Source of the DNA: a virus
Taxonomy: Duplodnaviria > Caudoviricetes
DNA: 64,000 nucleotides
Reading direction: 5' to 3' (one strand)
Virus record (IMG/VR): IMGVR_UViG_2934069824_000002
Span: 14,437 to 78,436 of that record
The position numbers and the translations under genes are program-made. The notes beneath the pieces are model-generated. The model ran no database searches and had not been told where the DNA came from. It was given only the letters and a program-made list of their open reading frames with translations. Positions 2,545 to 22,773 of the stretch are shown piece after piece; within the stretch, counting starts at the first letter, position 1; every line of letters starts with the position of its first letter.

Positions 2545-3486
2545 TCAGAAGATGTAGGCGTGCTGCCGCAGCAGCCGGACCGCGTGCGCGCGGTTGTCGG
2601 CCAGGCGGAAGATCTCTTCGGGCATCAGGCGCGGAGTACGGCGGCCGGCCGCCCGCATGCGCTTTCCGGCGATGCCCCGGGCCGTGGTGCTCTCGGTCGT
2701 GGCGAGCACCTTGCGGCCGAACACGGTGGCTGTCGCCATGCCGCGCCGGGCGTTGACGAGCAGCCCCAGGTCGGCGCCCTCGGCGAGCGCCTTTGCCCCG
2801 GCCTCGCCGAACGTCTTCTTGCGCTGGGCGTCCGACATGGCGTCGACCAGCTTGCGCGGGTCCTGCGCGGTGGGCCGGTGGTCGCGGGTGACGGGCTCCA
2901 TCCCGCACTGGCAGCGCGGGTGCCGCAGGAAACCCGTGGACGTGCCGTACTCCTTCCCGGCCAGGACCAAGCAGCGGGAGCAGGCCCCGGACTCCGTCAC
3001 CCGGATGTACGCGGTGACCGACGGCCGGGTCACCATGCCGACCTGATCGGCGGCCCGCCCTGCGTCCGCGACGGCGGTGCGGGCGACGATGTCGATCAGG
3101 GCCTGGCCGCGGGCCATGGCCTGGGCGATCGGGGCCCCGGCGGTGACCATCCGGAACGCGGCCCACATCGGGCCGGCCAGCACGTCGGCCAGGGGCAGGC
3201 CCTCGCCGGACACCCCGGCCAGCATCTGCGGGTTCAGCCGGTCGGCGTCCGGCCGGTCCGGGTCCTCGTCGCCGAGCAGCCGTGTCAGCCACGACTCGGT
3301 CGACTCGGCGGCCGCGAGCTGGGCTCCGGACACGACCACCAGGAGGCGGGCCATGAGCGGCAGCCAGGAACCGCGGATGTCCTGCGGGTCCGTCTGCCTC
3401 CACAGCCGCACAGCGGCCCGACCGGCGGCCTGCCCGAGCCGCTCCCTGGCCGCCTGGTGGGTCAGCGCGAGAGGCGACGGGCTCAT
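2545..3486 (-). CDS. Head morphogenesis / MuF-like minor capsid protein
   Basis: ACSRCLVLAG...FLRHPRCQC motif; between portal and scaffold. Confidence 0.82.
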   Translation of the reverse strand: MSPSPLALTHQAARERLGQAAGRAAVRLWRQTDPQDIRGSWLPLMARLLVVVSGAQLAAAESTESWLTRLLGDEDPDRPDADRLNPQMLAGVSGEGLPLADVLAGPMWAAFRMVTAGAPIAQAMARGQALIDIVARTAVADAGRAADQVGMVTRPSVTAYIRVTESGACSRCLVLAGKEYGTSTGFLRHPRCQCGMEPVTRDHRPTAQDPRKLVDAMSDAQRKKTFGEAGAKALAEGADLGLLVNARRGMATATVFGRKVLATTESTTARGIAGKRMRAAGRRTPRLMPEEIFRLADNRAHAVRLLRQHAYIF

Positions 3487-4973
3487 GCCGCTGGCTCCTC
3501 TACCGGCCCGTCAGGGGCGTCCTCCTGTCCGGGCGGCGCCGGTGCGGGGGTGCGCCCGTCGACCATCATGCGGGTGATCTCCGAGACCGGGTCGGCCTCC
3601 ATCTCCCGGGCCCGCATCGCGAGCATGTCGGACACCTCGGTCGGGGTGAGCCCGTACTTCGAGGCCAGCCACTCCAGCGGGAAGCCGATGCCCTTCAGCT
3701 TCACCAGGGCGTCCGCGAGCTGCGCGTGGCTGCGCGACTCGGCGTCCGCCCACAGCACCCGGCCCGAGCGCAGCGCGTCGGCCTTGCGGTCGTCCCCTTG
3801 GGCCAGGGCGATGAGCCGGGCGGCCTCGCGGATGCCCTGCCCGTACCAGAGCTGTTTCTCCTCGACGCGCTTCACCAGTCCGGTCTCCGCCGCGAGCAGC
3901 GCGTCGGCGGACAGGTTGGCCATCTTCCCGATCAGGTAGTGCTGCGGGGTGCGGGTCTGGGCGGCGAGGTGGCCGACCGCCACCTCGATCAGGCCCGTGT
4001 ACATGGTCAGGTTCGCGGCCTGCCACTCGGCGATCTTCGCGTCCTTGCCGTTGAACATCATCACGCGGTCGACGGCGAACTTCTCGATGTCGACCGGCTT
4101 GTCGCCGACGACGATGCCCTCGCTGTTCAGCACGGGCAGCTTCGGTGCGTCGGCGCCGAGGATGACCCGCTGCGGGAACGACGCGTAGTCGGAGGCGGTG
4201 AACAGCTGCGCCCACAGGAGGTTGATGGCGTCCTGCATGGCGATCACACCGGCCACGTCCGACATCGGCTCGCCCACCAGGGACGGCTTGTTCGGCAGCT
4301 CCACCATCGGCACCACGCCCATGGGGTTGATCTGAGGGTTCGGCTCCTCGTCCAGCTCCCGCGGCTTCCATCGCTTGAGCTCCTCGTCGACCTCGGTCAT
4401 GGCCGGCGACTTGGCGTCCTCCCCGTACATCACCGGGCGGGAGAACTTCCACACCTGATCGGGCAGGTACAGGGTCGCGAAGTCCTCGCCGCCGTCCTGC
4501 CACCGCTTCAGCGCCGCCCGCCGGTGCCGCCTCGACCCGGGCTCGTAGGCGACGATGCACTGGGAGGCGTCCTCGAACGTGACGACCGGCATGTCCGGGT
4601 CATCCGGGTCGCCCCACACCAGCACGAAGCAGCGGGCCCCGGTCACCGCACCGAGGAACCCCAACTGCGAGTCGGCGTCCAGGCCGTTGACCTGCCACAC
4701 CTTCCACAGTTCCTTGTCCGCCTGTGTCTCCCCGGCGGCCTGGATCCCGTTCACGGTCAGCCGCTCCACCGGGGAGTCGGCCACCACCTGCACCCAGTTG
4801 TCGCAGAAGTCCTGGTAGCGGTCCCCGTGGAACTTGCTGAACGCGTCCGAGGCGTACTTCAGCCGGCCGCGCCCCCGGTAGTAGGCGTTGTGCCGGTCGA
4901 TGTCCGTGCGCCGGTTGACGAGCTCCTGTTCCAGGACGGTCACCAGCTGGAGAGCACGCTCCATCGTTGCCAT
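3483..4973 (-). CDS. Portal protein (SPP1 gp6-like)
   Basis: Start MATMERAL at 4973; YYRG, FPQRVILG, NLSADAL motifs; follows the terminase. Confidence 0.92.
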   Translation of the reverse strand: MATMERALQLVTVLEQELVNRRTDIDRHNAYYRGRGRLKYASDAFSKFHGDRYQDFCDNWVQVVADSPVERLTVNGIQAAGETQADKELWKVWQVNGLDADSQLGFLGAVTGARCFVLVWGDPDDPDMPVVTFEDASQCIVAYEPGSRRHRRAALKRWQDGGEDFATLYLPDQVWKFSRPVMYGEDAKSPAMTEVDEELKRWKPRELDEEPNPQINPMGVVPMVELPNKPSLVGEPMSDVAGVIAMQDAINLLWAQLFTASDYASFPQRVILGADAPKLPVLNSEGIVVGDKPVDIEKFAVDRVMMFNGKDAKIAEWQAANLTMYTGLIEVAVGHLAAQTRTPQHYLIGKMANLSADALLAAETGLVKRVEEKQLWYGQGIREAARLIALAQGDDRKADALRSGRVLWADAESRSHAQLADALVKLKGIGFPLEWLASKYGLTPTEVSDMLAMRAREMEADPVSEITRMMVDGRTPAPAPPGQEDAPDGPVEEPAA

Positions 4974-4983
4974 CGCTCTCCTC

Positions 4984-6618
4984 TCACGCGCCGTAGTAGT
5001 AGGACTGCTGCCGCACCGCGAGACCCGCGGCGATGACGTCGCCCAGCGCCTCATGGGCCAGGACGCTGGCCATGGTGGCGTCGATCTTCTGAGCCGAGCT
5101 GGCCTTCTTCAGGACGTACCGGTCGGCCGGCCGTGCGGCCGCGCGGGTGTTCGCGACGTGCGCCTCGGTGATCGGGCACCCGTCGTGCGTGAACGCGGCC
5201 CCGTCCGAGTTCCGTTTCAGGACGTCCGTGCGCAGCCGCTCCGTCGCCTTGTGGATCTGCACCGGCCGGGTGGTGTACCAGCGCACGACGCGCTCCTCCC
5301 CGTACAGGTCGACCCACTCGTCGACTTCGGTCTGCCAGTACGGCGGGTCCGCGTACAAGCGGACCACGTCGTAGCGGCGGAACAGCTGCTCCACCGCCGC
5401 GCGCACCTCCGCGCGCGGGACCTGGCCGCCGTAGTCGGCCGGGTTCCAGATCGTCGGCTCGTCCTCGTCGCCCCACTGCGGGGTGAACTGGTAGCCGGTC
5501 ATGGTCTCGGCGCGGATCGCGGTCCAGTCGTCCATGTCCGAGCCGTCGAACCCGAGGACGATGCGGGTGCGCGGGCGCACACGCTGCGGCTTCTCCTTCG
5601 CCGCCCACTTCGCGCCGTCCAGCCAGGAAGCAGACCCGGCCACGCACCGGTTGCCGAAGAAGCGTTCCGCCTGGGCGGGGTCCTTCTCCATGATCTCGGC
5701 GGCCTCGGCCTCGATCGCGTCCAGGTCGACGTGCGTCGACCCGGCGTACACCACCGTGTGGATCTTCCGGCGGTCCCGCTTGTTGCCGTAGGACAGCGTC
5801 TTCGGCGCCTGCGGGTGGTAGCGGAAGATGTCCTTCGCCTTCGCCTCGGACGTCGTCTGCGCGACGCTGTTCTCCGAGGGGTCCCACCCGTTCGTCGTCT
5901 CCATCGACCGGCCACCCATACCGGCCGTGCCGCGGCGCTGCGTCTCGGCGACCCGGCGCAGCTTGTTCGCCGTGTTGTACAGGCCGGTCTCGTCCTGCAT
6001 CGCAAAGATGATCGGGTTGCCCAGCCGGGACAGCGCCGACGAGGTGACGACGTCGATCCGGCCGTCGTCCCCGACCCGGGTGAACTCCTCACCGGACTGC
6101 ATCAGCTCGGACAGCGGACCGCGCCGCACCATCGACCGCAGCGGCCGGTAGACGTTCGCCACCTGGTCCTCCGACGTCGCCGTCAGCTGAATCAGCGGCG
6201 TCGGCCACGGTGTACCCATCGGTTCGCCGGGCTCGTAGTCGTACCACCACCCGCAGCCGCACCCGTGATCCGAACACCGGTAGCGCTCGCCGCCCTTGGC
6301 CCAGCCGTCGAAGACGACGGGGCCGGCGGCCTCGGCGAGGACGATCGTCGCGGACCACGGCCCCTTGCCCGTCTTCTGCGGGGCGACGACCTGGCTGCGC
6401 CGGTAGTGGAACGCGGGCGCGAACTGCCCGACGACGGCTGCGGGCTTCACCCGGTAGTGGTTGACCGTGCACCACAGCTGCCACGGATACAGCTCCATGT
6501 CCTCACCCGCGCGGAACCCGTCCGGGACCGGGCAATGGCGCTCGATCCAGTCCGGGACGATCCACAGGGTGGGGAAGTCGACGACGAACTCGGCGGCCGC
6601 GTCAGCTGCCTTCGCCAC
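4984..6618 (-). CDS. Terminase large subunit
   Basis: Walker A PQKTGKG, Walker B MQDE, nuclease LGFDGS...D and KIDA motifs. Confidence 0.95.
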   Translation of the reverse strand: MAKAADAAAEFVVDFPTLWIVPDWIERHCPVPDGFRAGEDMELYPWQLWCTVNHYRVKPAAVVGQFAPAFHYRRSQVVAPQKTGKGPWSATIVLAEAAGPVVFDGWAKGGERYRCSDHGCGCGWWYDYEPGEPMGTPWPTPLIQLTATSEDQVANVYRPLRSMVRRGPLSELMQSGEEFTRVGDDGRIDVVTSSALSRLGNPIIFAMQDETGLYNTANKLRRVAETQRRGTAGMGGRSMETTNGWDPSENSVAQTTSEAKAKDIFRYHPQAPKTLSYGNKRDRRKIHTVVYAGSTHVDLDAIEAEAAEIMEKDPAQAERFFGNRCVAGSASWLDGAKWAAKEKPQRVRPRTRIVLGFDGSDMDDWTAIRAETMTGYQFTPQWGDEDEPTIWNPADYGGQVPRAEVRAAVEQLFRRYDVVRLYADPPYWQTEVDEWVDLYGEERVVRWYTTRPVQIHKATERLRTDVLKRNSDGAAFTHDGCPITEAHVANTRAAARPADRYVLKKASSAQKIDATMASVLAHEALGDVIAAGLAVRQQSYYYGA

Positions 6619-7081
6619 TGGGCACGACCTTCAGCCGGTCCCGGGCAGACGGGCGCCGCACGGGCGCCGCGAGCACCGGGCCGTCGGCGGCCGGCTCGTC
6701 CGTGGCCGGGGCGATCTTCCACCGGTTGCGGTTCATGCCCGCCACGCTCAGCCCCAGGCTGTCGAGGTAGCCGCGCACCATCTTCTTGATGTCGACCCGG
6801 GCATCGGGGCGCTCGACCTCGGCCAGCGTGCGGACGAAGAGCGCCACCTCCAGCTCCTGCCCCATGTCCTCCCACGCCAGAGCCTGCGGTTTCACCCACA
6901 GGCCTTCCCACAGCTCCAGTTCCCGGCCGGTCGGCTCCGTCAGCGGCCACTCGGGCGGGTCGCCCGGCCTGCCCTCGGCGGGCAGCGTCCGCCATCCACC
7001 CTTCTCGATCGACGCGGCGCTCTTCAGCGACCGCGGGTCCGGCGGTGGCCCGGACACGGTGCGCGCTCCACCACGGGGCAT
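6602..7081 (-). CDS. Terminase small subunit
   Basis: MPRGGAR..SGP.PDP N-terminus and LGLS..GM.RNRW motif; immediately upstream of terL. Confidence 0.82.
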   Translation of the reverse strand: MPRGGARTVSGPPPDPRSLKSAASIEKGGWRTLPAEGRPGDPPEWPLTEPTGRELELWEGLWVKPQALAWEDMGQELEVALFVRTLAEVERPDARVDIKKMVRGYLDSLGLSVAGMNRNRWKIAPATDEPAADGPVLAAPVRRPSARDRLKVVPSGEGS

Positions 7082-7089
7082 GACGATCA

Positions 7090-7230
7090 CTCCTTCAACG
7101 CTGCGTTGCGCAGCACCGAGAGCCGTCACCTTGCGTGACAGCGGGGACCCTATGAACCCGGCGGACCTCCGAGCGCCCTCCCCCGCGTTGCTCGCCCCCA
7201 GGTCAGCCGGGGGTACCCCCCTGGGTGGAC
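7090..7230. other. Putative cos/packaging-initiation region of prophage A
   Basis: Non-coding gap between HNH and terS; blocks ggaccct(a/t)tgaacc, gccctcccc and acccccctggg are conserved at 46000..46135. Confidence 0.5.
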
Positions 7231-7683: not shown

Positions 7684-8091
7684 CTACCCCTTGGGGTCGG
7701 GGCAGTTCATGAGGATGGCGGGCCAGGTGTCGCCCTTGATGCGGCCGCCGGTGTAGATGTCGGAGGCCTGCTGGTCCTTGGCCCATTCGCCCATGCAGAC
7801 GTACACCTTGTCGGCGTCGCTGCGGACGACGGTGATGCCGTAGTTGAGGAACTGGTCGCCGATGCTCTCGGCGTAGTCCTGGATGGCGGCCTTGGCCGTG
7901 TCGACGGTGGCGTCGGGGACGACGAGGTCGACGCTGCCGGTCTTCTTCTTCTCGTCCTTGTTGGCGACGGTGTAGGCGGGCGGCTTGGGTGTGTCCACGT
8001 TCTTGGCCTTCTGGTCGTCTTCGCCGCAAGCGGTGAGTGTCAGGAGCAGGCCGGCCGTGATGAGTGCGGCGGTGGTGGTTCGGGTGCGCAT
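7684..8091 (-). CDS. Lipoprotein (moron; superinfection-exclusion candidate)
   Basis: Signal peptide MRTRTTTAALITAGLLLTLTA-C with lipobox; GGGGGA RBS. Confidence 0.75.
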   Translation of the reverse strand: MRTRTTTAALITAGLLLTLTACGEDDQKAKNVDTPKPPAYTVANKDEKKKTGSVDLVVPDATVDTAKAAIQDYAESIGDQFLNYGITVVRSDADKVYVCMGEWAKDQQASDIYTGGRIKGDTWPAILMNCPDPKG

Positions 8092-8162
8092 GGTCCCCCC
8101 AGGGATGTGCGTGATGAGGGGGACATCATCGGGCACCGTGGGGCGTGCTGTCCTGGGTACGA

Positions 8163-8806: not shown

Positions 8807-8905
8807 TCAGTGGCTGTGGGCGGGGTAGTTGCCGCCGCAGCGGGCGCAGTACGGGAGGGGCTGCTGGGTGAAGTGGGCGGCGGCGAGGAGGGCGAGGAGT
8901 GCCAT
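8807..8905 (-). CDS. 32-aa CxxC/HxH peptide (MALLALLAAAHFTQQPLPYCARCGGNYPAHSH)
   Basis: Hand translation; AGGA RBS; near-identical ORF at 48700..48798. Confidence 0.72.
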   Translation of the reverse strand: MALLALLAAAHFTQQPLPYCARCGGNYPAHSH

Positions 8906-8983
8906 GATCGTGGTCCTGTCTCGTGAGGGATGGGGCCATGGGGCGGCCGGTCGCCTGGCAGTGAGTCGGCCGCCCCGCGGGTG

Positions 8984-9274
8984 CTAGGTGGTGGGCAGTG
9001 CGCGGCAGGTCTCGGCGTGGGCCTGCGCCCACTCGCGGGCGGCAGGGAGGGCGGATTCGCCGGTGGCGTCGAAGTTGGGCTGCGGGCCGGTGCCGAACTC
9101 GTCGTGGTGGGCGTCGAAGCCCCATCCCTCGGTGTGTTCCTCGCCGCAGCCGTTGCACCGGACGCCGTGCTCGGTCGGGTGCTCCACCCAGTAGACGCCG
9201 GACTGTTCGGCGATGGTGACGATGGCTCCTCCGAGGGTCTTGTACTGGGCGACGGTCTTCGTCTCGGTGCTCAC
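8984..9274 (-). CDS. Hypothetical protein with CxxC and HxxxC
   Basis: GTG start after AGGAG; RCNGC...WAQAHAETCRA motif. Confidence 0.7.
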   Translation of the reverse strand: MSTETKTVAQYKTLGGAIVTIAEQSGVYWVEHPTEHGVRCNGCGEEHTEGWGFDAHHDEFGTGPQPNFDATGESALPAAREWAQAHAETCRALPTT

Positions 9275-9314
9275 GTGGGTCTCCTGAGTGATGTGGATGC
9301 CGGGCTGTCCGGCT

Positions 9315-9478
9315 CCCCTCACCGCCCCTCTCACGCGGGCGGATCGGGCAGCCGTCAGGCGGCAGAAGCGGGCTCTTCGGTGCGAGAGGGGGCACTCTCC
9401 GGCCGCTCTTCAGGGGCAGAGCAGGGGGTCTCACCTGCGTCTTCACCCTTGGAGAGGGGGTGGTCTTCCCGAGAGGGG
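9315..9478. repeat. GAGAGGGG repeats at the 3' end of the TM-wHTH gene
   Basis: GAGAGGGG at 9384, 9452 and 9471; inverted CCCCTCTC at 9325 and CCCCTCAC at 9315. Confidence 0.45.
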
Positions 9479-10137
9479 AGGGGGGTGGCCAGGTCGGCGA
9501 GGCGGATGCCCGAACGACCTCTGACGTCGCCGATGGTGAGGCTCCGGGTGATGGGGATGTCGAGGGCGGTGAGGGCCTCTCGAAGGGCGGCCTCTTCGTG
9601 CCTTTCCATGCCGGGCAGGGCGAGCATCTTGGGGTACAGCTCGTAGAGGTGGATTCCGGTCCGGTCGCCGATGGTCTCGGTGAGCCACTGGACGATGGCG
9701 TCGCGGGGGCTGGCCGGGGCTGCGCTGGGGGTTCCCTGCTCTGCCTTGGCGGGTTCCTCGTCGGGGGTGCCGACCATGTACGCGGCGACGACCCAGCCGA
9801 GGGCGGCCGTAGCGGTCGCGTAGGTGGTGTAGTCGGACACTGCGGTGACGTAAGCGCACCCGAGGAGGAGCCCGACCCGCTTGAGCGGCGCCCGCTTGTC
9901 GAGAACGGGTTCCGGCTCCTCGGCGGGTGCTGGCTTCTTCTGCTCGCCCTTGCCGTCGGCGGCCTGGTCGCCCTTCTTCTGCTGGCCCTTGGCGGGCTGC
10001 TGCTTCTCGGCGGGCGGTTCGGGCTGCTCGGGGGTGCGGTACTTCGGGGAGGAGATCCAGGTGGTGATGCGGTCGTAGAGGATGACGGAGCCGTCGCCGA
10101 GGGGCTGGATGAGCGGCTTGAGGGGCTTGAGGTTCAT
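9355..10137 (-). CDS. Membrane protein with C-terminal putative winged-helix domain
   Basis: Two hydrophobic segments, then IGDRTGIHL...LREALTALDIP...SGIRLADL; homologue at 49169..49756. Confidence 0.7.
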   Translation of the reverse strand: MNLKPLKPLIQPLGDGSVILYDRITTWISSPKYRTPEQPEPPAEKQQPAKGQQKKGDQAADGKGEQKKPAPAEEPEPVLDKRAPLKRVGLLLGCAYVTAVSDYTTYATATAALGWVVAAYMVGTPDEEPAKAEQGTPSAAPASPRDAIVQWLTETIGDRTGIHLYELYPKMLALPGMERHEEAALREALTALDIPITRSLTIGDVRGRSGIRLADLATPLPSREDHPLSKGEDAGETPCSAPEERPESAPSRTEEPASAA

Positions 10138-10457
10138 CGGCCGGTCCCGATCGTGGTGACGCTGTCGCCGACCTGGTCGCCGATGTCCTGGACGCTGCCG
10201 AAGATGTCGGCGATGATCCCGCCGGCGCTTCCGGCGAGGAGGATGCACGCGATGGCGGTGATGATGATCGCCTTGCGCTCGGCGTCCTTGTAGACCCCAG
10301 ACTTCCACTTGACGACGATGACCGTGCACATGATGAGGCCGATGAGGAGTGCGCCGAGGGCGCCGCCGTTGACGTCTAGGGCTGGCACCTGTTCGGGTGC
10401 GGCGGCCATGGTGTGGCGGGCGGCGGTGTCGATCGCGGCGGTGAGGCTGGTGCGCAT
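10134..10457 (-). CDS. Small 2-TM membrane protein
   Basis: Two hydrophobic helices; resembles the C-terminal half of 49756..50265. Confidence 0.7.
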   Translation of the reverse strand: MRTSLTAAIDTAARHTMAAAPEQVPALDVNGGALGALLIGLIMCTVIVVKWKSGVYKDAERKAIIITAIACILLAGSAGGIIADIFGSVQDIGDQVGDSVTTIGTGR

Positions 10458-10469
10458 CAGGGGTGCCTT

Positions 10470-10613
10470 TCAGAGGCCGAGAAGCTTGGCGATGGTGGTG
10501 GCGGACGCGGCGTAGATCGCCCAGATGGCGAGCCGGTCACTGCGGAGAAGCGCGGCGGGGACGCGGACGACGATGTACGCGATGAGGCCCCAGCCGAGGG
10601 CGTAGGCGATCAC
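10470..10613 (-). CDS. 47-aa 2-TM membrane peptide
   Basis: GTGA overlap with the upstream stop; hydrophobic. Confidence 0.55.
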   Translation of the reverse strand: MIAYALGWGLIAYIVVRVPAALLRSDRLAIWAIYAASATTIAKLLGL

Positions 10614-11440
10614 GACCGGTTGCTGTCGACGACGTGGCGGCGGAGCTCGGTGGCGTCGCGGCGGGACAGCCCGTACTCGTCGCGGAGGCGTTCGATGGTC
10701 ACGGGGCGGCCGGTGTCCCTGACCAGTTCCCGGTTGAGCGCGCGGGCTTGTTTCCGCAGTTCGGATGGGGTGATGGCGACCGGGACGGTGACCACCTGCC
10801 GGACGTCCTGGGCGGGCACGGCAGCGGTCATCTTCCGGACGGCAACGGTGGCACCGGGGAGCGTGGCGGTGGGCCAGGTGATCGGGCGGAAGGCCTCGAC
10901 GGTGACTGGCCGGGTGACCACCTGCTCCGGCCCCGGGGTGAGGCGTTCGAGGGTGGCCGTCGGCGGCTCGGCCGGTACGGCGGGCTCGTCGGGGGTGGTC
11001 ACCTTGGTGGAGACGATCGGCAGCGGGCGTACCCCTGCGGGCACCACCTCGGGCACCGGCAGGGTGAACGCGACGGAGGGCGGCGAAGTGGTCACCGTGA
11101 CCAGCTCGGCCGGCTCGGCCGCCGGTTCGCTGAGCCGGTGGACCCGCCACAGGACGAGCGGGGCGATGGCGGACACGGCGACGACGAGCGGCCAGTCAAC
11201 GGGCAGCAGCCCGGCGGACGCGAGGTGGCTGGCGGCGTTCACCGCGACCAGGGCCACGACGACGATGAGGACGTCGCGCTTGGCCCGCAGGGCGCGGATG
11301 GCGTAGATGTCGAGGGCGGCCGGGACGCCGGCGGCGACGTACTTCCCGAACCCGCAGGCGCGGGCCAGGTCGTACTCGGCGGACGCGAGGACCACCAGGA
11401 CGGCGGCGAGGGCGCCCCAGACGAGCGGGTCCTTCTTCAC
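10610..11440 (-). CDS. Multi-TM protein with C-terminal HTH (Spd/DUF2637-like)
   Basis: About four N-terminal TM segments (EYDLA..CG..PAALD), V/T/P-rich linker, TIERLRDEYGLSRRDATELRR. Confidence 0.7.
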   Translation of the reverse strand: MKKDPLVWGALAAVLVVLASAEYDLARACGFGKYVAAGVPAALDIYAIRALRAKRDVLIVVVALVAVNAASHLASAGLLPVDWPLVVAVSAIAPLVLWRVHRLSEPAAEPAELVTVTTSPPSVAFTLPVPEVVPAGVRPLPIVSTKVTTPDEPAVPAEPPTATLERLTPGPEQVVTRPVTVEAFRPITWPTATLPGATVAVRKMTAAVPAQDVRQVVTVPVAITPSELRKQARALNRELVRDTGRPVTIERLRDEYGLSRRDATELRRHVVDSNRS

Positions 11441-11799
11441 TGGCCCTCACCGGCCTGGAGGATCTGCACCCATCCGGCGAGGCGCCGCAGCTGCCCGACG
11501 GCGGTCTCGTAGTCGTCGGCCAGCTCGCGGACGGCGTCGGGGGTGAGGGTGATGGCGAGGTCGGCCTGCTCGACGAACAGGCCGATGTCGCGGGGGCCGT
11601 TGCCGTGCGGGTACTGGGAGACGAGGGCGGTACCGACGGGGTCGCTGGGGCGGCCGAGCGGGTGCTCGATGCTGCGGTGCCCGAGGTCGACGAGCGCGTC
11701 GACCGGCTGCCCGGCATGGCCGACGCACCAGGACGGCTCGGGCACGGTGACGGTGCCCTGGTCGGTGGTGGGCACCGTGACGGTGCGCTGGGTGCTCAT
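11437..11799 (-). CDS. Actinobacterial mobile-element protein (EPSWC..H motif, DUF6907-like)
   Basis: MSTQRTVTV...EPSWCVGH; ATGA coupling. Confidence 0.65.
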   Translation of the reverse strand: MSTQRTVTVPTTDQGTVTVPEPSWCVGHAGQPVDALVDLGHRSIEHPLGRPSDPVGTALVSQYPHGNGPRDIGLFVEQADLAITLTPDAVRELADDYETAVGQLRRLAGWVQILQAGEGQ

Positions 11800-12071
11800 C
11801 CGGCGGTCACCCCGCGGGCGATGAGGCGGAGGAGCGCGGCGTACTCGGCCCGGGTCTGCCCGGCGCGCACCCGGGGGGCGGCGGCGAGGAGGTCCTGCTC
11901 GGCGGCGAACGCGGCTTCGGTGGGGCCGTGCAGCTGCTCGGCGAAGACGAGCGCCCGGGCGAGGCGGATCTCCTCGCGCATCTCGGCGTCGGGCCGCTGC
12001 CGGTCGAGGGTGTCGGCGAACTGGCCGAGGAGGAGCACGGTGTCGTCGCTGAGGACGAGGGGCGTGGTCAT
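11796..12071 (-). CDS. Hypothetical protein (TRAEYA..LR motif)
   Basis: Coupled start/stop; motif shared with 52297..52596 and 52596..52946. Confidence 0.65.
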   Translation of the reverse strand: MTTPLVLSDDTVLLLGQFADTLDRQRPDAEMREEIRLARALVFAEQLHGPTEAAFAAEQDLLAAAPRVRAGQTRAEYAALLRLIARGVTAG

Positions 12072-12244
12072 CGGGCACCGCCGGTGGGGCGGATGCTGCC
12101 GGTGACGCCGGCCTCGGTGGCGCGCACCGTGGTGGTGCGTCCGCCGTGGCGGCTGATGGTGCCGACGGCGATGAGGCGCCGGTCGGGCGGGGGGCCACCG
12201 ACTCCGCTGCCGCATGGCAATGCAATACGATTCGAGGTGTCCAT
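12068..12244 (-). CDS. Hypothetical 58-aa protein
   Basis: Hand translation MDTSNRIALPC...GGAR; ATGA overlap with the next gene. Confidence 0.45.
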   Translation of the reverse strand: MDTSNRIALPCGSGVGGPPPDRRLIAVGTISRHGGRTTTVRATEAGVTGSIRPTGGAR

Positions 12245-12377
12245 GACGAGGGCTCTTCTCGTTCGTGGGAAGTGCCGGGGCGCTGATACGCCTCGGTGCG
12301 TCAGGGAGTCGGTCGACGCGCGCGCCCCTCCGGTGTTCGAGCACCGGAGGGAGCTGTTGGCCGGCTCCCGCTCTGCG

Positions 12378-12614
12378 TTATGGGGTTGTGGTGGGGCCCT
12401 TTCGAGTGGGCCCGTTGTGCTTCTTGATCGCCTGGTCGACGGTGGTCCAGCCCTTGCCGAGGTCCTTGGCGACTGCGTAGACGCTTCCGAGTTCGGCGAC
12501 GCCCTCGGCGAGAGCTGCCGCCCTTCGTTTGGCTGCGGCGTTCACCTGGGTCTGGAGCTGTTCGAGCAGCTCTTCCTCCTGGCGAACCCGGTCTCGCCAG
12601 GGTTTCGCTTCCAT
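12378..12614 (-). CDS. Small HTH regulator
   Basis: SVYAVAKDLGKGWTTVDQAIKK. Confidence 0.7.
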   Translation of the reverse strand: MEAKPWRDRVRQEEELLEQLQTQVNAAAKRRAAALAEGVAELGSVYAVAKDLGKGWTTVDQAIKKHNGPTRKGPTTTP

Positions 12615-12625
12615 CCCCCGGACCG

Positions 12626-12667
12626 TATCACTGGGGGGCAGTGATAGTCCAGTGTCACGCAACACTG
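12626..12667. promoter_or_regulatory. Palindromic operator(s) upstream of the small HTH gene
   Basis: TATCACTG-N5-CAGTGATA (12626..12646) and CAGTGT-N6-ACACTG (12650..12667). Confidence 0.55.
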
Positions 12668-13299
12668 CGCGCCTTCGTGTCCTCGTCGACCCACGTCTTC
12701 AACTGGGCCCACACGTAGGGCGGGTACGAGCACGTGCACCACGGGCAGACGATCGCCTTCTCGCCCGGCGCCAGGTGCAGCACAGCCCCGCAGATCGCCC
12801 CGGAGGGGTCAACCGCCGGACAGTTGCCCACCCGGGCCCCACGCTCGGGCGCCGGCGGCCGGAGTATCGACGCCACGGACCCGGCCAGGTCCCGGATCTC
12901 TCCAGCGAACTCGCCGGCCTGCGGCCACGACACGGTGATCCACGGCATGTGGCGCAGCAGACCTTCCACGGCGGCGTCCAGGCGCCCGTCGACACCCCGT
13001 CGGGCGGCGGGGTGCTGCCGCATCCCGCGGTCCTGGCGGACGGCGGACAGCCAGTCCTCCAGCGTCCCGACCATCACGCCCCGCATGTCGAGGATTCCCT
13101 CGGCCACGGGGAGCGGCGGCGGGCCGCCCTTTCCGCCTCGCCCCTGGGACACGGCGGTAGAGGGGGTGAGCAGGACGCCGAGCCCGCGGTACAGGACAGG
13201 CAGGCCCTCCAGCCGGACCCGGGTCGACTTCGAGCAGCCGGGGCAGAGGTAGCTGCCGGTCTCGTCGGGCTGCTCGCACAGCAGGCAGGTGGTGGGCAT
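12655..13299 (-). CDS. Zn-binding phage protein (possible late-gene regulator)
   Basis: N-terminal CxxC..CxxC and C-terminal CP..CG..CPWC; homologue at 54058..54798. Confidence 0.7.
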   Translation of the reverse strand: MPTTCLLCEQPDETGSYLCPGCSKSTRVRLEGLPVLYRGLGVLLTPSTAVSQGRGGKGGPPPLPVAEGILDMRGVMVGTLEDWLSAVRQDRGMRQHPAARRGVDGRLDAAVEGLLRHMPWITVSWPQAGEFAGEIRDLAGSVASILRPPAPERGARVGNCPAVDPSGAICGAVLHLAPGEKAIVCPWCTCSYPPYVWAQLKTWVDEDTKARSVA

Positions 13300-13314: not shown

Positions 13315-13836
13315 TCAGAACGGGGGTTCGTCCGAGTAGCCCGGGGCGGGCGCCGCCGGGGCGGCAGCTGCGGCGGGCGGCGGGCTGCTGGCCCACCCGC
13401 CGCCGGTCTGCTGCTGCTCGGGGGGCTTGGCCCCCGCCCACGCGTCGCCCTGCGCCTGGCCGCCGTTGCCGGACGGGTTCTTCGTCACCGCGGCCGACGC
13501 GCGCAGCAGCGACGGGCCGACCTCTTCGACGTCGATCTCGTACGCGGTGCGCTTCACCTGCTCCCGGTCCTCGTAGGAGCGCTGCTTCAGCCGGCCCTGG
13601 ACGATGACCCGCATGCCGCGGGCCAGGGTGGCGGCGGCGTTCTCGGCCTGCTGCCGCCATACGGAGCAGGTGAGGAAGAGGCCTTCGCCGTCCTTCCACT
13701 CGTTGGTCTGCCGGTCGAGGATGCGGGGGGTGGAGGCGACGCGGAACTTCGCGACGGCGGCACCGGCCGGGGTGAAGCGGAGCTCGGGGTCGTCGACCAG
13801 GTTTCCGACGATCGTGATGGTGGTCTCGCCTGCCAT
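13315..13836 (-). CDS. ssb: Single-stranded DNA-binding protein
   Basis: [23 protein letters not shown]...DEPPF, an actinobacterial SSB signature. Confidence 0.96.
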
Positions 13837-13868
13837 CAGGGGTTCTCCTTCTTGGCCTTGATCAAGCG

Positions 13869-14055
13869 GTGGACGTGCGCGTGGACGTGGACGCGGGATG
13901 TGGACGTGGACAACGTGGACGGCGTCCACATGGGCCCGTCTCGCGTCGCGGGAGTGAAATAATTCATTGTTATGTCCCTTTATGTACTAGTTAGGGGCGT
14001 GGCGGATTGAGGGACGGGACGACGTGGACAACCGTCCACGCGTCCACATGTCCAC
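13869..14055. repeat. Putative replication origin: GTGGAC/GTCCAC iterons around an AT-rich core
   Basis: 7 direct and 4 inverted hexamers flanking an AT-rich tract at ~13956..13993; directly downstream of the primase-helicase. Confidence 0.72.
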
Positions 14056-14060
14056 ATCGC

Positions 14061-16685
14061 TCACCCCGTCTGAACGCAGACCCGATCGCCCTCCACGAAC
14101 ACCCAGTCGCGGGTCTCCGCGACCTCGACGGACCGCCGCAGGAACGGCCTGTCGCTGCTCCTGAGTCGACGGTTCAGCTCGCCGAACGTGATCCCGCCGA
14201 CGGCCGACGAGTGCTTCTTCACGAGGCGGGCGATGCGCTCCAGGCTGCGGTCCGTGTCGTTCTTCGCCTGGTGCGAGCGGAGCTCCTGCGCGACCTTGGC
14301 GTCCTCCTCGCGCCGCCGGGCAGCCTCGGCCTCGCGGGCCGCTCGCTGGATCAGCGCGGCACGGACGGTGCACGAGGACTTCCAGACGATCTCGGCGAGT
14401 TCCCAGTCCTGCTCGGTCGCTTCGACGCGGCCGCCGTCGAGCAGCGCCAGGAGGGCGGTGATCTTCACCTTCATCAGGTTGGCGTGGCCGTCGAGCTCGT
14501 CGATCTCCAGCTCGCCGCGGTTCCGCGCGACGTGCTCGGCCCAGAGCATCCGCCGGATGCGCTCGGGGAGCACGATGTTGAGGTCCTCCATCGGCTGGAC
14601 GGAGGCGGGGTTGACCGGCAGTGGGCCGGGTGAGACGGGCGGCTCGTCGGGGATCGACGGGTCGGCGGCCCAGGCCCAGAGGAAGCGCTGCGGGGTGCCA
14701 GTGCTGGCGTCGGCGATGACCGGCATAGCGGTTGACGGCTGGAAGCCGACGACCATGCCGAGGCTGTAGGAGCCCGCCGCGACGTACCGGGTGCGCTCCT
14801 CAGAGGCGTTGGTCTGGCCGAGGGTCTCGCCGATCGCGGCACGGCGCAGCGTCTCGCCCAGCACGCTGCCGGCGCGCTCCGCCAAGCTGGCCAGGGTCTG
14901 GCCTTCGTCGACGTAGAAGTAGGCGTTGTGCCGGACCTGCTTCCGGACCTTCCGTGTGACGGGGTCGCCCTTGAGCGGGCCCTTGGCGTGGATCTCGCCC
15001 GTCTCCTCGTCGACCGTTCCCATGAACGCCTCGGCGATGCCCTCCCCGGACCCGATGGGGAGTCCGTCGCGGAACTCCGGGTCGATCGGGGGGAGCAGCG
15101 ACCGGGCGACCTTCGTGCCGATGGACTTGCCACCGCCGGATGCGGCGACGACCGCGACGAACATGTTCAGCGACGCGCGGCCGCCGATGCCCGACACGGC
15201 GGCGATGCGGTGCGACACCATCGCCGACATACGCGCGAGGAGCGAGAAGAACAGCACGTCGCCGCTGGAGCCTTCGGCGTGGGCGGCCAGGCGGATGTGC
15301 TGGAACACCGGGCGGGCGTTCCAGAACTCCTCGGGCAGGAGCCCGGGGTGGGCCTTCGGGTCCGGCTGGTCGTCGCCTGGGCGCGCGTGTTCCGGCTCCG
15401 GCTCGACCAGCTGGCCCGCCCCCCAGAGGTCTGCGGGCGGCGGCGGGCTGGAGCGTTCGGCGCGCGGCGGGCGGCACTGCTGCTTCACCCGCGCCAGGAC
15501 GGGGGAGGGCAGCGACCGCGCGGGCGAGGAGCACGGCTGGTCGTAGGCCGCGCGCAGCACGTCCCGCGCAGCCTCGCGCTCGTCCCCGTTGTAGTGCAGA
15601 TGCGCCCACAGGGTGGGGACGGTCAGCTTCCGCCCGGACGGCTGCTGACCGACCGGGAGCCCGGACCGCTCGGACCAGTTCACCGCGACGTGGTCGTCGC
15701 ACATGAGGCTGTGGTCGCTCTCGGCAGAGCCCTCCGCGCTGGCCGGGCGCAGCCACTTCTCGCGGCCGCCGGACGTGCCGCGGTACGTCCACCCGGCGGG
15801 CTCCAGGACGTCCCGGAAGGTGAGCATGGACGCGAGGATGTCGAAGACGCTGCTGCCGCCCGTGCTCGTCGCGCGGGCGCGCGGCGGCGGGACAGCGGGG
15901 CGCCCGTGCCGGGCGTCCTGGCGGGCGCGCTTCTCTGCGGCGGCCTTCTCCAGTGCCGCGCGTGCTGTGGGCTCCAGGGCGGCGGCCTGCTCGTGCATCA
16001 GTTGCAAGGGCACGGGATGTCCGCTGCCGGGCACGCTGCCCGTCGGCCGGGCCTGTCCGCCCTTCCTGTTGACCGTGCCGGGCACGCGCATCAGCCGGTC
16101 GAGGTTGCCGACCTGGGTGTCCCAGGTGCAGCCGTGCCCGTAGGCGGCGGCGCCGAGGATGGTTTGCACCGAGGCGGTCATCGCCTCGACGCGGGCCCGG
16201 TCTTCGGCGGTCTCCATGACGTACGGGGTTTCGAGCATCCAGACGGGGTTGAGGCCGCCGCCGGACAGCACCCAGCCGGTGGGCTCGGGGAGTCCGGACG
16301 ACGCCACGATCTGGCGGACGTGGTCGGCGTCGTCGGGGTGGGGCATCTCGTCGGGGCCGGGCTTGTGGCCCAGGCCGCCGAAGTCTCCGTCCGCCCAGAT
16401 GAAGGTGACGGCGTGCGCGAGGTCCTTCCCGCCGCGCCCCTTCTCGGGGTGCTCTCGCAGGGTGGTGACCTGCGCGTAGATTCCCTTCGGGTCGCGGGTG
16501 TCGAGCTGGAGGACGTAGTCGACGGCGGCGGTGATGCCCGCCTCGTTGGTGGTGAAGCGGCGACCGGCCCAGTCGGCGTCGCTGCAGATGCTGAGCAGCC
16601 CGGGGACGTTCTGGTACTGGAAGGCCAGGGACCGGTGGACCAGGTCCTTGTCGACGACGGCCGGGGTGGGGAGCGGTTCGGTCAC
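14061..16685 (-). CDS. Primase-helicase replication protein
   Basis: GTG at 16685; primase motifs WADGD, SGGG, RLMRVPGTVNRK; P-loop SGGGKS and Walker B YVDE. Confidence 0.85.
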   Translation of the reverse strand: MTEPLPTPAVVDKDLVHRSLAFQYQNVPGLLSICSDADWAGRRFTTNEAGITAAVDYVLQLDTRDPKGIYAQVTTLREHPEKGRGGKDLAHAVTFIWADGDFGGLGHKPGPDEMPHPDDADHVRQIVASSGLPEPTGWVLSGGGLNPVWMLETPYVMETAEDRARVEAMTASVQTILGAAAYGHGCTWDTQVGNLDRLMRVPGTVNRKGGQARPTGSVPGSGHPVPLQLMHEQAAALEPTARAALEKAAAEKRARQDARHGRPAVPPPRARATSTGGSSVFDILASMLTFRDVLEPAGWTYRGTSGGREKWLRPASAEGSAESDHSLMCDDHVAVNWSERSGLPVGQQPSGRKLTVPTLWAHLHYNGDEREAARDVLRAAYDQPCSSPARSLPSPVLARVKQQCRPPRAERSSPPPPADLWGAGQLVEPEPEHARPGDDQPDPKAHPGLLPEEFWNARPVFQHIRLAAHAEGSSGDVLFFSLLARMSAMVSHRIAAVSGIGGRASLNMFVAVVAASGGGKSIGTKVARSLLPPIDPEFRDGLPIGSGEGIAEAFMGTVDEETGEIHAKGPLKGDPVTRKVRKQVRHNAYFYVDEGQTLASLAERAGSVLGETLRRAAIGETLGQTNASEERTRYVAAGSYSLGMVVGFQPSTAMPVIADASTGTPQRFLWAWAADPSIPDEPPVSPGPLPVNPASVQPMEDLNIVLPERIRRMLWAEHVARNRGELEIDELDGHANLMKVKITALLALLDGGRVEATEQDWELAEIVWKSSCTVRAALIQRAAREAEAARRREEDAKVAQELRSHQAKNDTDRSLERIARLVKKHSSAVGGITFGELNRRLRSSDRPFLRRSVEVAETRDWVFVEGDRVCVQTG

Positions 16686-16960
16686 TGCTGCACCGCCGGG
16701 AAGTAGTAGCTGCCGGTCGGGCGGCCGACGCACCGGGACTGCCGGGGGCAGACGTGTGGTGCCGAAGCGGGGCCGGCGGGGTGGATGTGCTGGCAGTCGC
16801 AGAACGGGCAGGCCACGACGAGGTGCGTCTGGAGCTCGCCGGTGTGGGCGTCCCGGTAGGCGACGAGGCGGGCCGCGGCGGCGACCATGCCGAGCCGGGC
16901 CGTCGGTGGCCGGGGCTCGGTGTCCTTCCCGAAGATGGGGAGGGTGGTGGTGCTGGTCAC
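16682..16960 (-). CDS. Zn-finger protein
   Basis: CPFC...HIH...C. Confidence 0.65.
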   Translation of the reverse strand: MTSTTTLPIFGKDTEPRPPTARLGMVAAAARLVAYRDAHTGELQTHLVVACPFCDCQHIHPAGPASAPHVCPRQSRCVGRPTGSYYFPAVQQ

Positions 16961-17056
16961 GAACGTGCTCTCTTCTACGAGCGGGGCTGGTGGTGTTCGT
17001 GAGGCGCGTGCCGCCCGGGCCGCAGATACGGCCCGGGCGGCGTTGCGCTCCCGGGG

Positions 17057-17497
17057 TCAGCCGCCGGGCGTCCGCAGGGAGTTGAGCATCCGCGCGTGAT
17101 CCGCGGTCATGATGCGGAGATGCTGCTGCACGTCGCCGACGATGAACGCCCACCGGGTTCCGGCCGGGACGTGCACCTCAATGTGCTTCGCGGAGAGGTA
17201 GAAGTGGGAGGCGATGGCCTGCCCGAGGCCGAACCCGCAGCGCAGTGCTTCCTCGCCGAGGCGGACGACTGCGGTGTGGCAGTCGACGGAAGGGTTCGTC
17301 TGCTTACGCAGGTCCTCGCTGACGTCGCTGCTTCGGTCGTAGCGGCCGGTGAGGTCGACGGTGACGACGAGCCGCACCTCGGGGACCGGCACCACGACGG
17401 GCGGCGCCACCGGCGCGGGCTCCGTGGCCGGGGCCGGGAGGGAAGCGAGGCGGACGGGGTGCTTGACCGGCCACTGGCCGACGGTGTGGTCGCTCAT
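17057..17497 (-). CDS. Hypothetical protein
   Basis: ATG at 17497 coupled to the upstream stop. Confidence 0.6.
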   Translation of the reverse strand: MSDHTVGQWPVKHPVRLASLPAPATEPAPVAPPVVVPVPEVRLVVTVDLTGRYDRSSDVSEDLRKQTNPSVDCHTAVVRLGEEALRCGFGLGQAIASHFYLSAKHIEVHVPAGTRWAFIVGDVQQHLRIMTADHARMLNSLRTPGG

Positions 17498-17715
17498 GCT
17501 GCCTTCTCCTTCGGCGTGGCCTGCTGGCGCAGTGCGGTGACGGCGGGGGCGAGCGCGGCGCGGATGGTGGCCCGCTGCTCGTCCGACAAGGGGGGCGCGG
17601 CGTCGACGATGCGCCGGACGCGCGCCCAGTAGGCGGCGTCGCCGTGCTTGGCGTGGGCCGGGCGGCCGGGGACGGTGAGGTCCCCGGCCGTGCCGGTGGT
17701 CTGCTTGTCGGTCAC
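17494..17715 (-). CDS. Hypothetical protein (APPLS.EQ motif)
   Basis: VDAAPPLSDEQRATIR; coupled on both sides. Confidence 0.65.
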   Translation of the reverse strand: MTDKQTTGTAGDLTVPGRPAHAKHGDAAYWARVRRIVDAAPPLSDEQRATIRAALAPAVTALRQQATPKEKAA

Positions 17716-18662
17716 GCGCGGGCCTCGCTGTCCATCTGGCCGCGCATCGTCCGCAGCGCGCTGGTGAGGGCTTCGAGCTGGCTGATGGTGGAGTCGACGC
17801 CGTTGGCGTCGAGCCCGAGGACGTCGAGGTCACCGGCGGCGAGGTACACCTTCGGGCCGCTGGTGTAGGACTCGTCCTTGCCGAGGCTGGCGGTGATGCG
17901 GATGTCGTCGGCGGGGTGGCCGTCGGACAGGGTGATGGTGGTCTCGTGCCCGGCGTGCTCGATGTAGCTGCCGCCGCCCTCGTGCTCGTCGTACTGGTGG
18001 GTGATGCACTCGGCGACGTTGCACCACGGGTAGTGGCCAAGGTCGGCCAGCGGGCTGGGGAGCTGGGGGACGGTGCCCTGGGCGATCGCGGCCAGGTGGT
18101 CGCGCTGGGCCCGGAGCCGGGGGAGGAACTGCTCCAGGTCGGCGGTGAGCTGGTCGGCTCCGGCGACGTCGAGGTCGGCGTCTGCGCTGGGCTGTGTGAA
18201 CACGGCGATCCGGGCGGTGGGGTCGCCGGGCTTCGGGTCGTCGAGGTGGTAGATCTCCGAGCTGATGAGGGCTCCGCTCGCACCGGCGGCGGTGACGGAG
18301 TACGTCTCGGTGCCGGGTTCCAGCGGGGCCCGGCCGTCGACGATGTCGGCGAGCACGGCCACGGCGTCGAGGTGGCGGTGGAGCTCAGCGACCCGGGCCC
18401 GGGTCTGCGCGGCGGTGAGGTTCAGGTCGAGCCATCCGACGCTGATGTCGACGCCGTCGGGGCCGTCCTCGGCCATGACGTTGGCGAGGAGGACGCAGTC
18501 GCCGTACCCGTCGACGGTGGGGGCCTCGACGTAAGCGGTGAGGTGCATCGAGTGGTCGCCGGTCTCGGCGCACCAGGCGTAGGCCCCGCACGGCGCGGCG
18601 GCGGCCGGTTCCGTCTGGCCGAGGTTCAGCTGTCGGGTGTCGGTGGCGTCTGAGATACTCAT
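17712..18662 (-). CDS. Protein with repeated WC..H (DUF6907-like) domains
   Basis: YAWCAETGDH and YPWC..C..H units each followed by a helical segment. Confidence 0.65.
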   Translation of the reverse strand: MSISDATDTRQLNLGQTEPAAAAPCGAYAWCAETGDHSMHLTAYVEAPTVDGYGDCVLLANVMAEDGPDGVDISVGWLDLNLTAAQTRARVAELHRHLDAVAVLADIVDGRAPLEPGTETYSVTAAGASGALISSEIYHLDDPKPGDPTARIAVFTQPSADADLDVAGADQLTADLEQFLPRLRAQRDHLAAIAQGTVPQLPSPLADLGHYPWCNVAECITHQYDEHEGGGSYIEHAGHETTITLSDGHPADDIRITASLGKDESYTSGPKVYLAAGDLDVLGLDANGVDSTISQLEALTSALRTMRGQMDSEARA

Positions 18663-18685
18663 GGTGGATCGGCCCTCTCTGCTAT

Positions 18686-21903: not shown

Positions 21904-21930
21904 CACTAAGGGTGTCTCTGCCAGAGTTTC

Positions 21931-22172: not shown

Positions 22173-22245
22173 GACTGGTAAGAAACCACCAATACAAGCG
22201 CTACGTGATTACCCCTGGTCAGAGGCCTTCCTGCCTCAAGCATGA

Positions 22246-22765: not shown

Positions 22766-22773
22766 GCCTGTGC

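Follow-up and report, generated by a model that had tools for sequence, protein, structure and literature searches.

A Spd-like membrane gene module without TraB in two tandem prophages and its relative on a small plasmid

The 64-kb stretch of DNA described here (the window, 64,000 nucleotides, positions 14,437 to 78,436) is the final part of the 78,436-bp provirus record IMGVR_UViG_2934069824_000002 of the IMG/VR database and contains two phage genomes in tandem, prophage A and prophage B. Each carries a coupled operon (module A, module B) that encodes membrane proteins and proteins with predicted DNA-binding folds. Homologous genes stand in the same order in two isolated temperate phages, VWB and Kromp, and on a 10.3-kb Streptomyces plasmid, and no TraB-type motor was found in the record. 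We give about an even chance to the reading that each prophage carries a membrane module of the Spd type, named for the Spd proteins of plasmids such as pIJ101, which would handle double-stranded DNA and aid the spread of the phage genome in the mycelium, with the motor supplied in trans.

Gene content of the two modules

A preliminary description of the same DNA had placed a coupled operon between the replication genes and the late region. Module A is indeed flanked by genes for a single-stranded-DNA-binding protein (SSB) and a primase-like protein on one side and by small terminase, large terminase and portal genes on the other. All of its genes lie on the minus strand, show a coding signal in the G+C content of third codon positions (GC3), and are read from high to low coordinates. 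Sizes below are in amino acids (aa); values in brackets are E values unless stated otherwise, and L numbers are our labels for related loci.

Module A
12655-13299, minus strand: 214-aa zinc-ribbon protein (phrog_1467, PHROGs 9.5e-26; weak Pfam match to DZR_2), conserved upstream neighbour
12378-12665, minus strand: 95-aa protein, possibly helix-turn-helix (HTH); weak Pfam matches only (HTH_Tnp_ISL3, E 0.018); conserved in L015, L018 and L020
12326-12351: 26-bp palindrome just past the stop codon of the 95-aa gene; 13-nt arms, 92% complementary, no spacer
12068-12244, minus strand: 58-aa open reading frame (ORF) with ATGA overlap into the next gene; similar ORF in L020 (5459-5665), likeness judged by eye
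11796-12068, minus strand: 90-aa protein with the motif TRAEYAALLR (blastp to Kromp gp76 2e-4; its family hidden Markov model, HMM, matches VWB gp22 at 4.4e-9)
11437-11799, minus strand: DUF6907 protein (Pfam PF21848, 2e-18); ATGA overlap with the previous gene, GTGA with the next
10610-11440, minus strand: 276-aa first-slot protein; four transmembrane (TM) helices, disordered linker and C-terminal three-helix HTH-like domain, an architecture like that of SpdB and DUF2637 proteins
10470-10613, minus strand: hydrophobic ORF of about 47 aa; GC3 frame signal, GTGA overlap; 47-aa homologue in L020 (7518-7661)
10134-10457, minus strand: 107-aa protein with two TM segments, 88% identical to the L020 copy
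9355-10137, minus strand: 260-aa protein; Lys/Pro/Glu-rich N-terminal part, hydrophobic segment, C-terminal winged-helix-like domain
8984-9274, start possibly up to 9334, minus strand: protein of about 96 aa; GC3 0.90, GTG at 9274 after GGAG
8941-8976, minus strand: GC-rich hairpin with a 10-bp stem (GGGGCGGCCG, 17 nt, then the complement)
8807-8905, minus strand: 32-aa peptide ending PLPYCARCGGNYPAHSH

Module B consists of a plus-strand HTH gene and a palindrome, followed by minus-strand genes for products of 116, 99, 55, 405, 193, 171, 195 and 65 aa, the hairpin and the 32-aa peptide. The 193-, 171- and 195-aa genes are referred to as the trio, and the position directly upstream of them as the first slot.

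Module B
53130-53348, plus strand: 72-aa excisionase/AlpA-like HTH protein (phrog_66, 0.0012), divergent from the module
53043-53073: perfect palindrome in the divergent promoter region; 15-bp arms, 100% complementary
52596-52946, minus strand: 116-aa protein, first gene of the operon; GGAGG before it, TGATG overlap into the next gene; weak match of the 90-aa family HMM (8.9e-4)
52297-52596, minus strand: 99-aa protein with the motif TRAAYAARLR (blastp to Kromp gp76 2.8e-5), counterpart of 11796-12068 in module A
50840-52057, minus strand: 405-aa first-slot multi-TM protein with C-terminal HTH-like tail; at least 1601 relatives; its family HMM matches VWB gp24, a DUF2637 protein (8e-8)
50262-50843, minus strand: 193-aa proline-rich membrane protein (phrog_15316 6.3e-21; Kromp gp83 2.6e-12; plasmid 158-aa protein 7e-15)
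49756-50271, minus strand: 171-aa 4-TM protein (phrog_16379 2.4e-38) with four hydrophobic segments
49169-49756, minus strand: 195-aa protein; helix, two TM helices, C-terminal winged helix (phrog_5650 1.7e-47; plasmid 306-aa protein 4e-16)
48874-49071, minus strand: 65-aa protein; weak TPR/MIT-like Pfam matches, homologue in L019
48834-48869, minus strand: hairpin, the same as in module A
48700-48798, minus strand: 32-aa peptide, near-identical counterpart of 8807-8905

The coupling was read directly at eight junctions of the two modules, where starts and stops overlap as ATGA, GTGA or TGATG; a promoter and terminator scan returned none on the minus strand. The 214-aa zinc-ribbon gene also stands beside the module in nine related loci (L010, L015, L018, L020, L062, L066, L081, L088, L093). 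The 260-aa protein matches VWB gp26 (blastp 2.5e-6) and phrog_5650 (3e-5). For the protein of about 96 aa, Pfam and PHROGs gave no family match; NCBIfam searches of the module gave nothing at E < 0.019, and matches to the 171-aa protein in the ESM Atlas were limited to unnamed clusters. DUF6907 occurs twice in prophage A, as the 120-aa module product (11437-11799) and as the C-terminal part of a 372-aa protein (17712-18830) adjoining the primase-like gene.

The preliminary description had named a TR.EYA..LR protein, which is the 90-aa product, and small TM proteins, of which module A has two: 10134-10457 and 10470-10613, the latter previously not listed separately. Two genes, 12068-12244 in A and 52596-52946 in B, are additions to it. 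Its HTH regulator with a palindromic operator at the head of module A was not confirmed: the 95-aa product has only weak HTH matches, and the palindrome lies past the stop codon of its gene; this palindrome may be a terminator or an operator. Nor is the regulator of module B a counterpart of that in A, being a different protein on the opposite strand, with a palindrome that is likely an operator.

The two modules had further been described as having the same order, with alignable proteins. This is correct for four pairs: the 90- and 99-aa proteins, homologous through their common match to Kromp gp76; the 260- and 195-aa proteins (blastp 1.7e-7); the 32-aa peptides; and, weakly, the 107- and 171-aa proteins (family HMM 13.8 bits, E 1.8e-4 among about 86 proteins, a score reached by 4 of 2000 local shuffles), the former being a probable half-size relative of the latter. 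It does not extend to the 276- and 405-aa proteins, which share slot and architecture and have a marginal likeness (hhalign probability 7-35%; HMM 13.9 bits, reached by 0 of 2000 shuffles), nor to the 193-aa protein, for which sequence comparison found no homologue in module A.

Short DNA repeats had been reported ahead of the peptide. The commonest 8-mer there is seen 3 times against a shuffle mean of 2.7-2.8, and the stretch holds the gene 8984-9274/9334 and the conserved hairpin; clt-like repeats in the module are thus not supported. The hairpin is kept in A, B and L020, and at 8941-8976 it probably marks the end of the operon. The 32-aa peptide of the preliminary description is conserved as a protein in 4 of 4 aligned loci (A, B, L018, L020), with the C-terminus PLPYCA[RK]CGG[NH]YPAHSH and R/K and N/H changes; judged by this conservation it is a real small gene. 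The CxxC peptide, which could be a small zinc-binding regulator, and the GC-rich hairpin preceding it are far better conserved between A and B than the flanking proteins.

The several small hydrophobic proteins would also suit a role in lysis timing or in the envelope, in which they would act like holins or remodel the cell wall and have nothing to do with DNA. Such a role is very improbable: the endolysin-like amidase gene of prophage B (26871-27746) stands at the far end of the late genes, about 21 kb from the module, two of the module proteins have predicted DNA-binding folds, and plasmids carry the same module.

Related modules in phages and Streptomyces genomes

When 50,697 phage records were searched by tblastn, the 195- and 171-aa proteins retrieved VWB (two records) and Kromp only. 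A tblastn search of phages with the 405-aa protein gave no match. VWB and Kromp both have tyrosine integrases. Their homologues stand in the order of the module, as gp24-26 in VWB and gp82-85 in Kromp, and the first slot is taken by a Pfam DUF2637 protein in each (VWB gp24 1.2e-35, Kromp gp82 1.4e-6). Over its C-terminal half, VWB gp25 shares 48% identity with the 171-aa protein. Phage Gilgamesh (MN234216.1, a 129-kb Streptomyces phage) encodes at 75832-76392 a 'membrane protein' with 44% identity to the DUF2637 part of VWB gp24; it was not retrieved by searches with the 171- and 195-aa proteins.

Conserved synteny in other prophages, which the preliminary description required, was found. The trio is present in order in all 11 IMG/VR loci found with the 195-aa protein, and one further locus, L020, is of the A type. 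All ten loci from Streptomyces genomes have the 171- and 195-type genes side by side, and nine of these loci also have a 193-type gene. A profile of the 171-aa family matched in 35 of the 401 Streptomyces genomes searched; some of these 35 loci overlap the earlier ten, and about 10 kb around each match was taken as its neighbourhood. A 195-type gene lies near 30 of the matches (of the five loci without one, two are truncated at a contig end), a 193-type gene near 25, a large terminase gene near 3, and a KorA-like GntR gene near 4, adjacent and divergent in L067. In L029, some 3 kb past the module on its downstream side, an ORF (13388-13585) has 38% identity over 66 aa to pIJ101 KilB (2.8e-7).

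All carriers examined are temperate, VWB and Kromp by their integrases and the others as proviruses or prophages. Prophages often carry membrane exclusion genes. The module might accordingly serve superinfection exclusion or defence, its membrane proteins blocking the DNA entry of other phages or conjugative elements, for example by trapping DNA or disturbing TraB pores; a membrane location with predicted DNA-binding domains on the soluble side would fit. This explanation is considered unlikely. PADLOC matched 0 of 10 module proteins, and the genes lie in a co-directional early-to-late block, coupled to lytic-type genes and not beside the repressor or integrase. A coupled operon of 4-7 genes is unusually large for exclusion, and a function of the kil or transfer type is indicated by the 10-kb plasmid, on which the same module stands under a Kor-like repressor.

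Relatives on plasmids

The plasmid is NZ_CP109464.1, a 10.3-kb circular plasmid of Streptomyces sp. NBC_01454. It encodes a DUF2637 protein, a 62-aa ORF and then proteins of 158, 167 and 306 aa, in this order. The 158-aa protein is homologous to the 193-aa protein of module B (7e-15), the 167-aa protein to the 171-aa protein (40% identity), and the 306-aa protein to the 195-aa protein (4e-16). The run is divergent from a GntR gene whose product is 30% identical to pIJ101 KorA, and beyond it the plasmid has a Rep gene and little else. No FtsK domain was found on it in a search with PF01580, and there is no room for one. Since homologous genes stand here in the same order beside a GntR gene, the phage module is a plasmid-type module, and the earlier suggestion of a relation to plasmids is borne out by the four genes. 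In a second record, NZ_CP109459.1 (20,689 bp), the match is present twice, and the record resembles a dimer of NZ_CP109464.1.

Relatives of the 405-aa protein occur on 20 actinomycete plasmids. The S. canus relative, on a 17-kb plasmid, comes two genes after traA-traB and has a GntR regulator upstream; that of S. goshikiensis, on an 18-kb plasmid, is immediately followed by an FtsK/HerA-like gene. A 21.6-kb S. chartreusis plasmid has a gene that matches the 276-aa protein in its TM part; this gene belongs to a same-strand run that starts beside a divergent GntR gene. With the 195-aa protein, tblastn against plasmids gave no match.

A plasmid with little beyond Rep and the module also suits a tether, in which the HTH and winged-helix tails would fix the replicating DNA of the phage or plasmid to the membrane, to assist its replication, its segregation into compartments or spores, or its hand-over to packaging, and so serve stability and not transfer. 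The position of the module directly after the SSB and primase-like replication genes agrees with it. Two papers (PMC4170104, PMC4447253) report that SpdA2, a homologue of pIJ101 SpdA, was characterised as a stability function and that spdB2 has a stabilising effect on the linear plasmid SLP2. No partition ATPase or centromere-like repeats were found beside the module, though, and Kor-type GntR control suggests that the genes do harm if left unregulated, which is not typical of partition genes. The probability of a tether is rated low.

Predicted structures

For the 276-aa protein, AlphaFold2 (AF2) was given an alignment of 20 rows, and the resulting model has an overall predicted local distance difference test score (pLDDT) of 64. 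It contains TM helices at residues 5-28, 33-52, 57-75 and 83-104, a disordered region at 109-209 and a C-terminal three-helix bundle at 225-275 with a pLDDT of about 94, in agreement with the multi-TM plus HTH protein of the preliminary description. In Foldseek the best neighbours of the bundle are the HTH domains of LexA and sigma region 4, at a root-mean-square deviation of 1.9-2.1 Å over 44-47 columns and with E >= 0.6, which is weak. The model fits the architecture of SpdB and SpdB2, four TM helices with a C-terminal soluble domain, with DNA binding predicted.

The AF2 model of the 195-aa protein (pLDDT 65) has an N-terminal helix, two TM helices and a domain of helix-strand-helix-helix-strand-strand order at residues 109-178. 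VIA-align matched it with Z scores up to 7.8. The reading of the protein as TM plus winged helix, which its homology to the 260-aa protein extends to module A, is reasonable, as the VIA-align matches with named folds are mostly winged helices (PadR, MarR, ORC, cullin, PCI). No likeness to the winged helix of TraB in particular was seen: the fold matches are generic, FtsK-gamma is not among the VIA-align matches listed, and the 195-family HMM had no match at E <= 1 to pIJ101 Tra and S. canus TraB. Foldseek against the PDB gave no match at E <= 0.001 for either model.

First-slot proteins and the SpdB and DUF2637 families

A SpdB profile of 16 rows was obtained by searching 1.84 billion representatives with pIJ101 SpdB; the SpdB/SpdB2 family carries the precomputed labels PF27080 and PF27079. 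In 12 of the 35 genomic loci this profile matches the first-slot ORF directly upstream of the trio, with E values between 3.9e-23 and 6.2e-6; the aligned part is the N-terminal TM domain, and at some loci the whole length. In the remaining loci the first slot is 405-type in 9, 276-type in 4, Kromp gp82-type in 4 and unassigned in 6. In L023 a 276-type first gene is joined to a B-type trio, an arrangement that marks the first slot as interchangeable. We read the slot as open to several proteins of the SpdB/DUF2637 class, which would replace one another there and act together with the trio.

The window's own first-slot proteins were compared with the same families. The SpdB HMM scores the 405-aa protein at 18.7 bits, reached by 0 of 2000 shuffles (top local shuffle 18.2), with an hhalign probability of 10.7%, a marginal signal. 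For the 276-aa protein the comparison was also made the other way round: its family HMM gives SpdB 8.1 bits, a score that 3 of 2000 shuffles reach as well. A shallow SpdB profile was tried against the 276- and 405-aa families and set aside (hhalign probability < 1%). The PF10935 (DUF2637) threshold was reached by VWB gp24, Kromp gp82, the NZ_CP109464.1 protein and 3 of 20 relatives of the 276-aa protein. The DUF2637 comparison proposed in the preliminary description therefore came out for the relatives, most clearly VWB gp24, and not for the 276- and 405-aa proteins themselves. None of the 16 SpdB-family members has a DUF2637 match.

DUF2637 and SpdB-family proteins have C-terminal tails in common. 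The first-slot proteins look like domain mosaics (L065 7901-8989, L084 12517-13971 and others), that of L065 combining a SpdB-type TM head with a Kromp gp82-type tail. A BLAST network that joined SpdB, DUF2637 and the 405-aa protein was considered as a sign of TM-domain homology and rejected, as its bridges are C-terminal; such bridges indicate that different 4-TM heads have been recombined with common tails, and are no sign that the heads are homologous.

The modules are thus of the Spd kind by context and architecture, while membership of the 276- and 405-aa proteins in either family is unproven; the assignment is partly supported.

Absence of TraB and Kor

The preliminary description had noted that a TraB motor is missing, and this was confirmed. 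PF01580 (FtsK_SpoIIIE) had no match in the 78-kb record, in VWB, in Kromp or on two small plasmids, while the annotated TraB and an FtsK-like plasmid protein used as controls were both detected. By tblastn, three TraB-type proteins, KorA and the GntR protein of NZ_CP109464.1 found nothing in the 78-kb record. TraB was found near 0 of the 35 genomic loci by blastp with three TraB-type queries only, a search of limited sensitivity. ORFs with a Walker-A motif near three related loci gave no FtsK match in a PDB sequence search. A place beside traB and under a GntR-type Kor regulator, as in spd and kil/kor systems, was seen in the plasmid relatives and not in the window. The earlier view of the modules as a kil/kor-spd-like unit is supported for the relation to plasmids, partly supported for the likeness to Spd, and not supported for Kor.

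Proposed function

The proposed mechanism starts from a single operon with coupled translation, placed where early genes give way to late ones. Its predicted products are a 4-TM protein of the SpdB/DUF2637 class, in which a flexible linker leads to an HTH tail on the soluble face; one or two hydrophobic proteins of small size; a further protein with four TM segments, or with two; and a winged-helix protein anchored in the membrane. These proteins may assemble in the hyphal membrane, probably at cross-walls, where the complex would retain double-stranded phage DNA or steer it. Phage genomes, whether replicating or excised, could in this way cross into adjacent mycelial compartments, the role ascribed to Spd proteins in plasmids. 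The motor would have to come from a host FtsK-like translocase or from a resident TraB element, because the module has no ATPase.

A number of observations weigh against this proposal. By blastp, pIJ101 SpdA, SpdB, orf66 and KilB had no matches among the module proteins, which leaves SpdA, KilB and orf66 without relatives there. The SpdB HMM scores the 276-aa protein at -4.8 bits (hhalign 3%), and hhalign probabilities of the window's first-slot proteins against SpdB profiles are 0.2-11% overall. The 276- and 405-aa proteins have no Pfam match (E <= 0.1), and a six-frame search for DUF2637 also gave none at E <= 10. The BLAST links between DUF2637 and SpdB run through the C-terminal domain and not the TM domain. 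Both AF2 models are of moderate confidence (pLDDT 64-65) and their fold matches are weak (Foldseek E >= 0.09, VIA Z <= 7.8). A Kor-type GntR regulator was not found in the 78-kb record. Finally, plasmid spreading requires TraB (PMC4447253), and TraB was not found in the phage module.

A broader idea, held as a speculation of low probability, is that small plasmids and temperate phages have in common a conduit for double-stranded DNA that is motor-less or uses a host motor, and through which a genome moves between compartments or hyphae without virions. Such a conduit, if real, would give mycelial bacteria a way of spreading DNA that does not depend on TraB, and would explain a 10-kb plasmid that has the module, Rep and a Kor-like repressor but no TraB. 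The presence of the module without TraB in phages and plasmids raises the question whether Spd-type functions always need TraB. The module bears on how phage genomes move through a mycelium that is divided into compartments, and on the spreading of plasmids, of which little is understood. The idea of spread is directly testable, because the gene set is defined in VWB and Kromp, which are culturable, and in the 10-kb plasmid.

Genomic context of the modules

The window has a G+C content of about 71%, and the minus strand holds nearly all genes. The label prophage is correct for both genomes, because each has a portal, a small and a large terminase and its own serine recombinase.

3483-5054 (A) and 42359-43870 (B): portal
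6602-7129 (A): small terminase without Pfam match, named by position and by co-hits with the B copy in related loci
45502-46020 (B): small terminase, Pfam Terminase_7 match
5005-6399 (A) and 43902-45296 (B): large terminase, about 30% identity to annotated VWB gp33 (8e-40 and 1.5e-38)
13315-13929 (A): SSB gene, upstream of module A
14061-17153 (A): primase-like DUF3987 gene, upstream of module A
About 21059-21505 and 63524-63967: serine recombinase, one per phage genome

Downstream of module A, 7684-8100 encodes a lipoprotein, its signal peptide having a lipobox-like LTACG; it has full-length or near-full-length matches in L010 and L028 and partial ones, of 27-41 aa, in four other related loci. 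Between the terminase genes and the module of prophage B lies a bPH_3 plus SHOCT gene (47605-48300, plus strand), opposite in direction to all its neighbours, which looks like an added cargo gene. The region from the integrase of prophage A to the late end of prophage B (21556-26600) contains a PCMT-type methyltransferase-like gene (22774-24081) and a gene for a 401-aa Xre-HTH protein (24384-25589), which may be host DNA or cargo genes.

Comparison with known systems

The preliminary description took a module of this kind to be undescribed for tailed phages, and that claim has to be withdrawn. Thoma et al. (2015, PMC4447253), citing papers on phiC31 and VWB, already state that SpdB2 homologues occur on actinophages and may help the phage DNA to spread, so the core idea is in print. 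The same paper describes SpdB2 as an oligomeric 4-TM protein that binds double-stranded DNA, and reports that spreading depends on spdB3-spd79-spdB2 and that TraB is also essential for pock formation and spreading. A literature search, with the primary phiC31, pZL12 and VWB genome papers outside it, gave no account of a larger phage module, of the trio or of a TraB-less plasmid twin.

The closest phage systems are VWB gp22-gp26 and Kromp gp75-gp85, with the same gene order and 36-48% identity for the 171- and 195-aa proteins. Their first slot is a clear DUF2637 protein, whereas that of the window is not, and the VWB and Kromp genes are annotated as hypothetical. The plasmid-phages pZL12 and pFP4 (as cited in PMC3583192 and PMC4170104) differ in that the window prophages have no tra gene; they are alike as Streptomyces tailed-phage genomes that behave as plasmids and carry transfer functions. 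NZ_CP109464.1 differs by its Rep and divergent GntR genes and by having no phage genes, and is known from sequence alone; it is alike in its four homologous genes in the same order and in the absence of an FtsK/TraB domain.

From the spd operons (pIJ101 spdA-spdB-orf66-kilB; pSVH1 spdB3-spd79-spdB2; PMC4447253) the phage copies differ in being without TraB and Kor, and the trio is not known from pIJ101. Like them, the modules encode small, diverse, mostly hydrophobic proteins whose genes are translationally coupled; among these is a 4-TM protein whose C-terminal domain binds DNA or partner proteins, in the modules by prediction. A GntR (Kor) regulator accompanies the plasmid copies of the module, and a SpdB member stands first in 12 of the 35 related loci.

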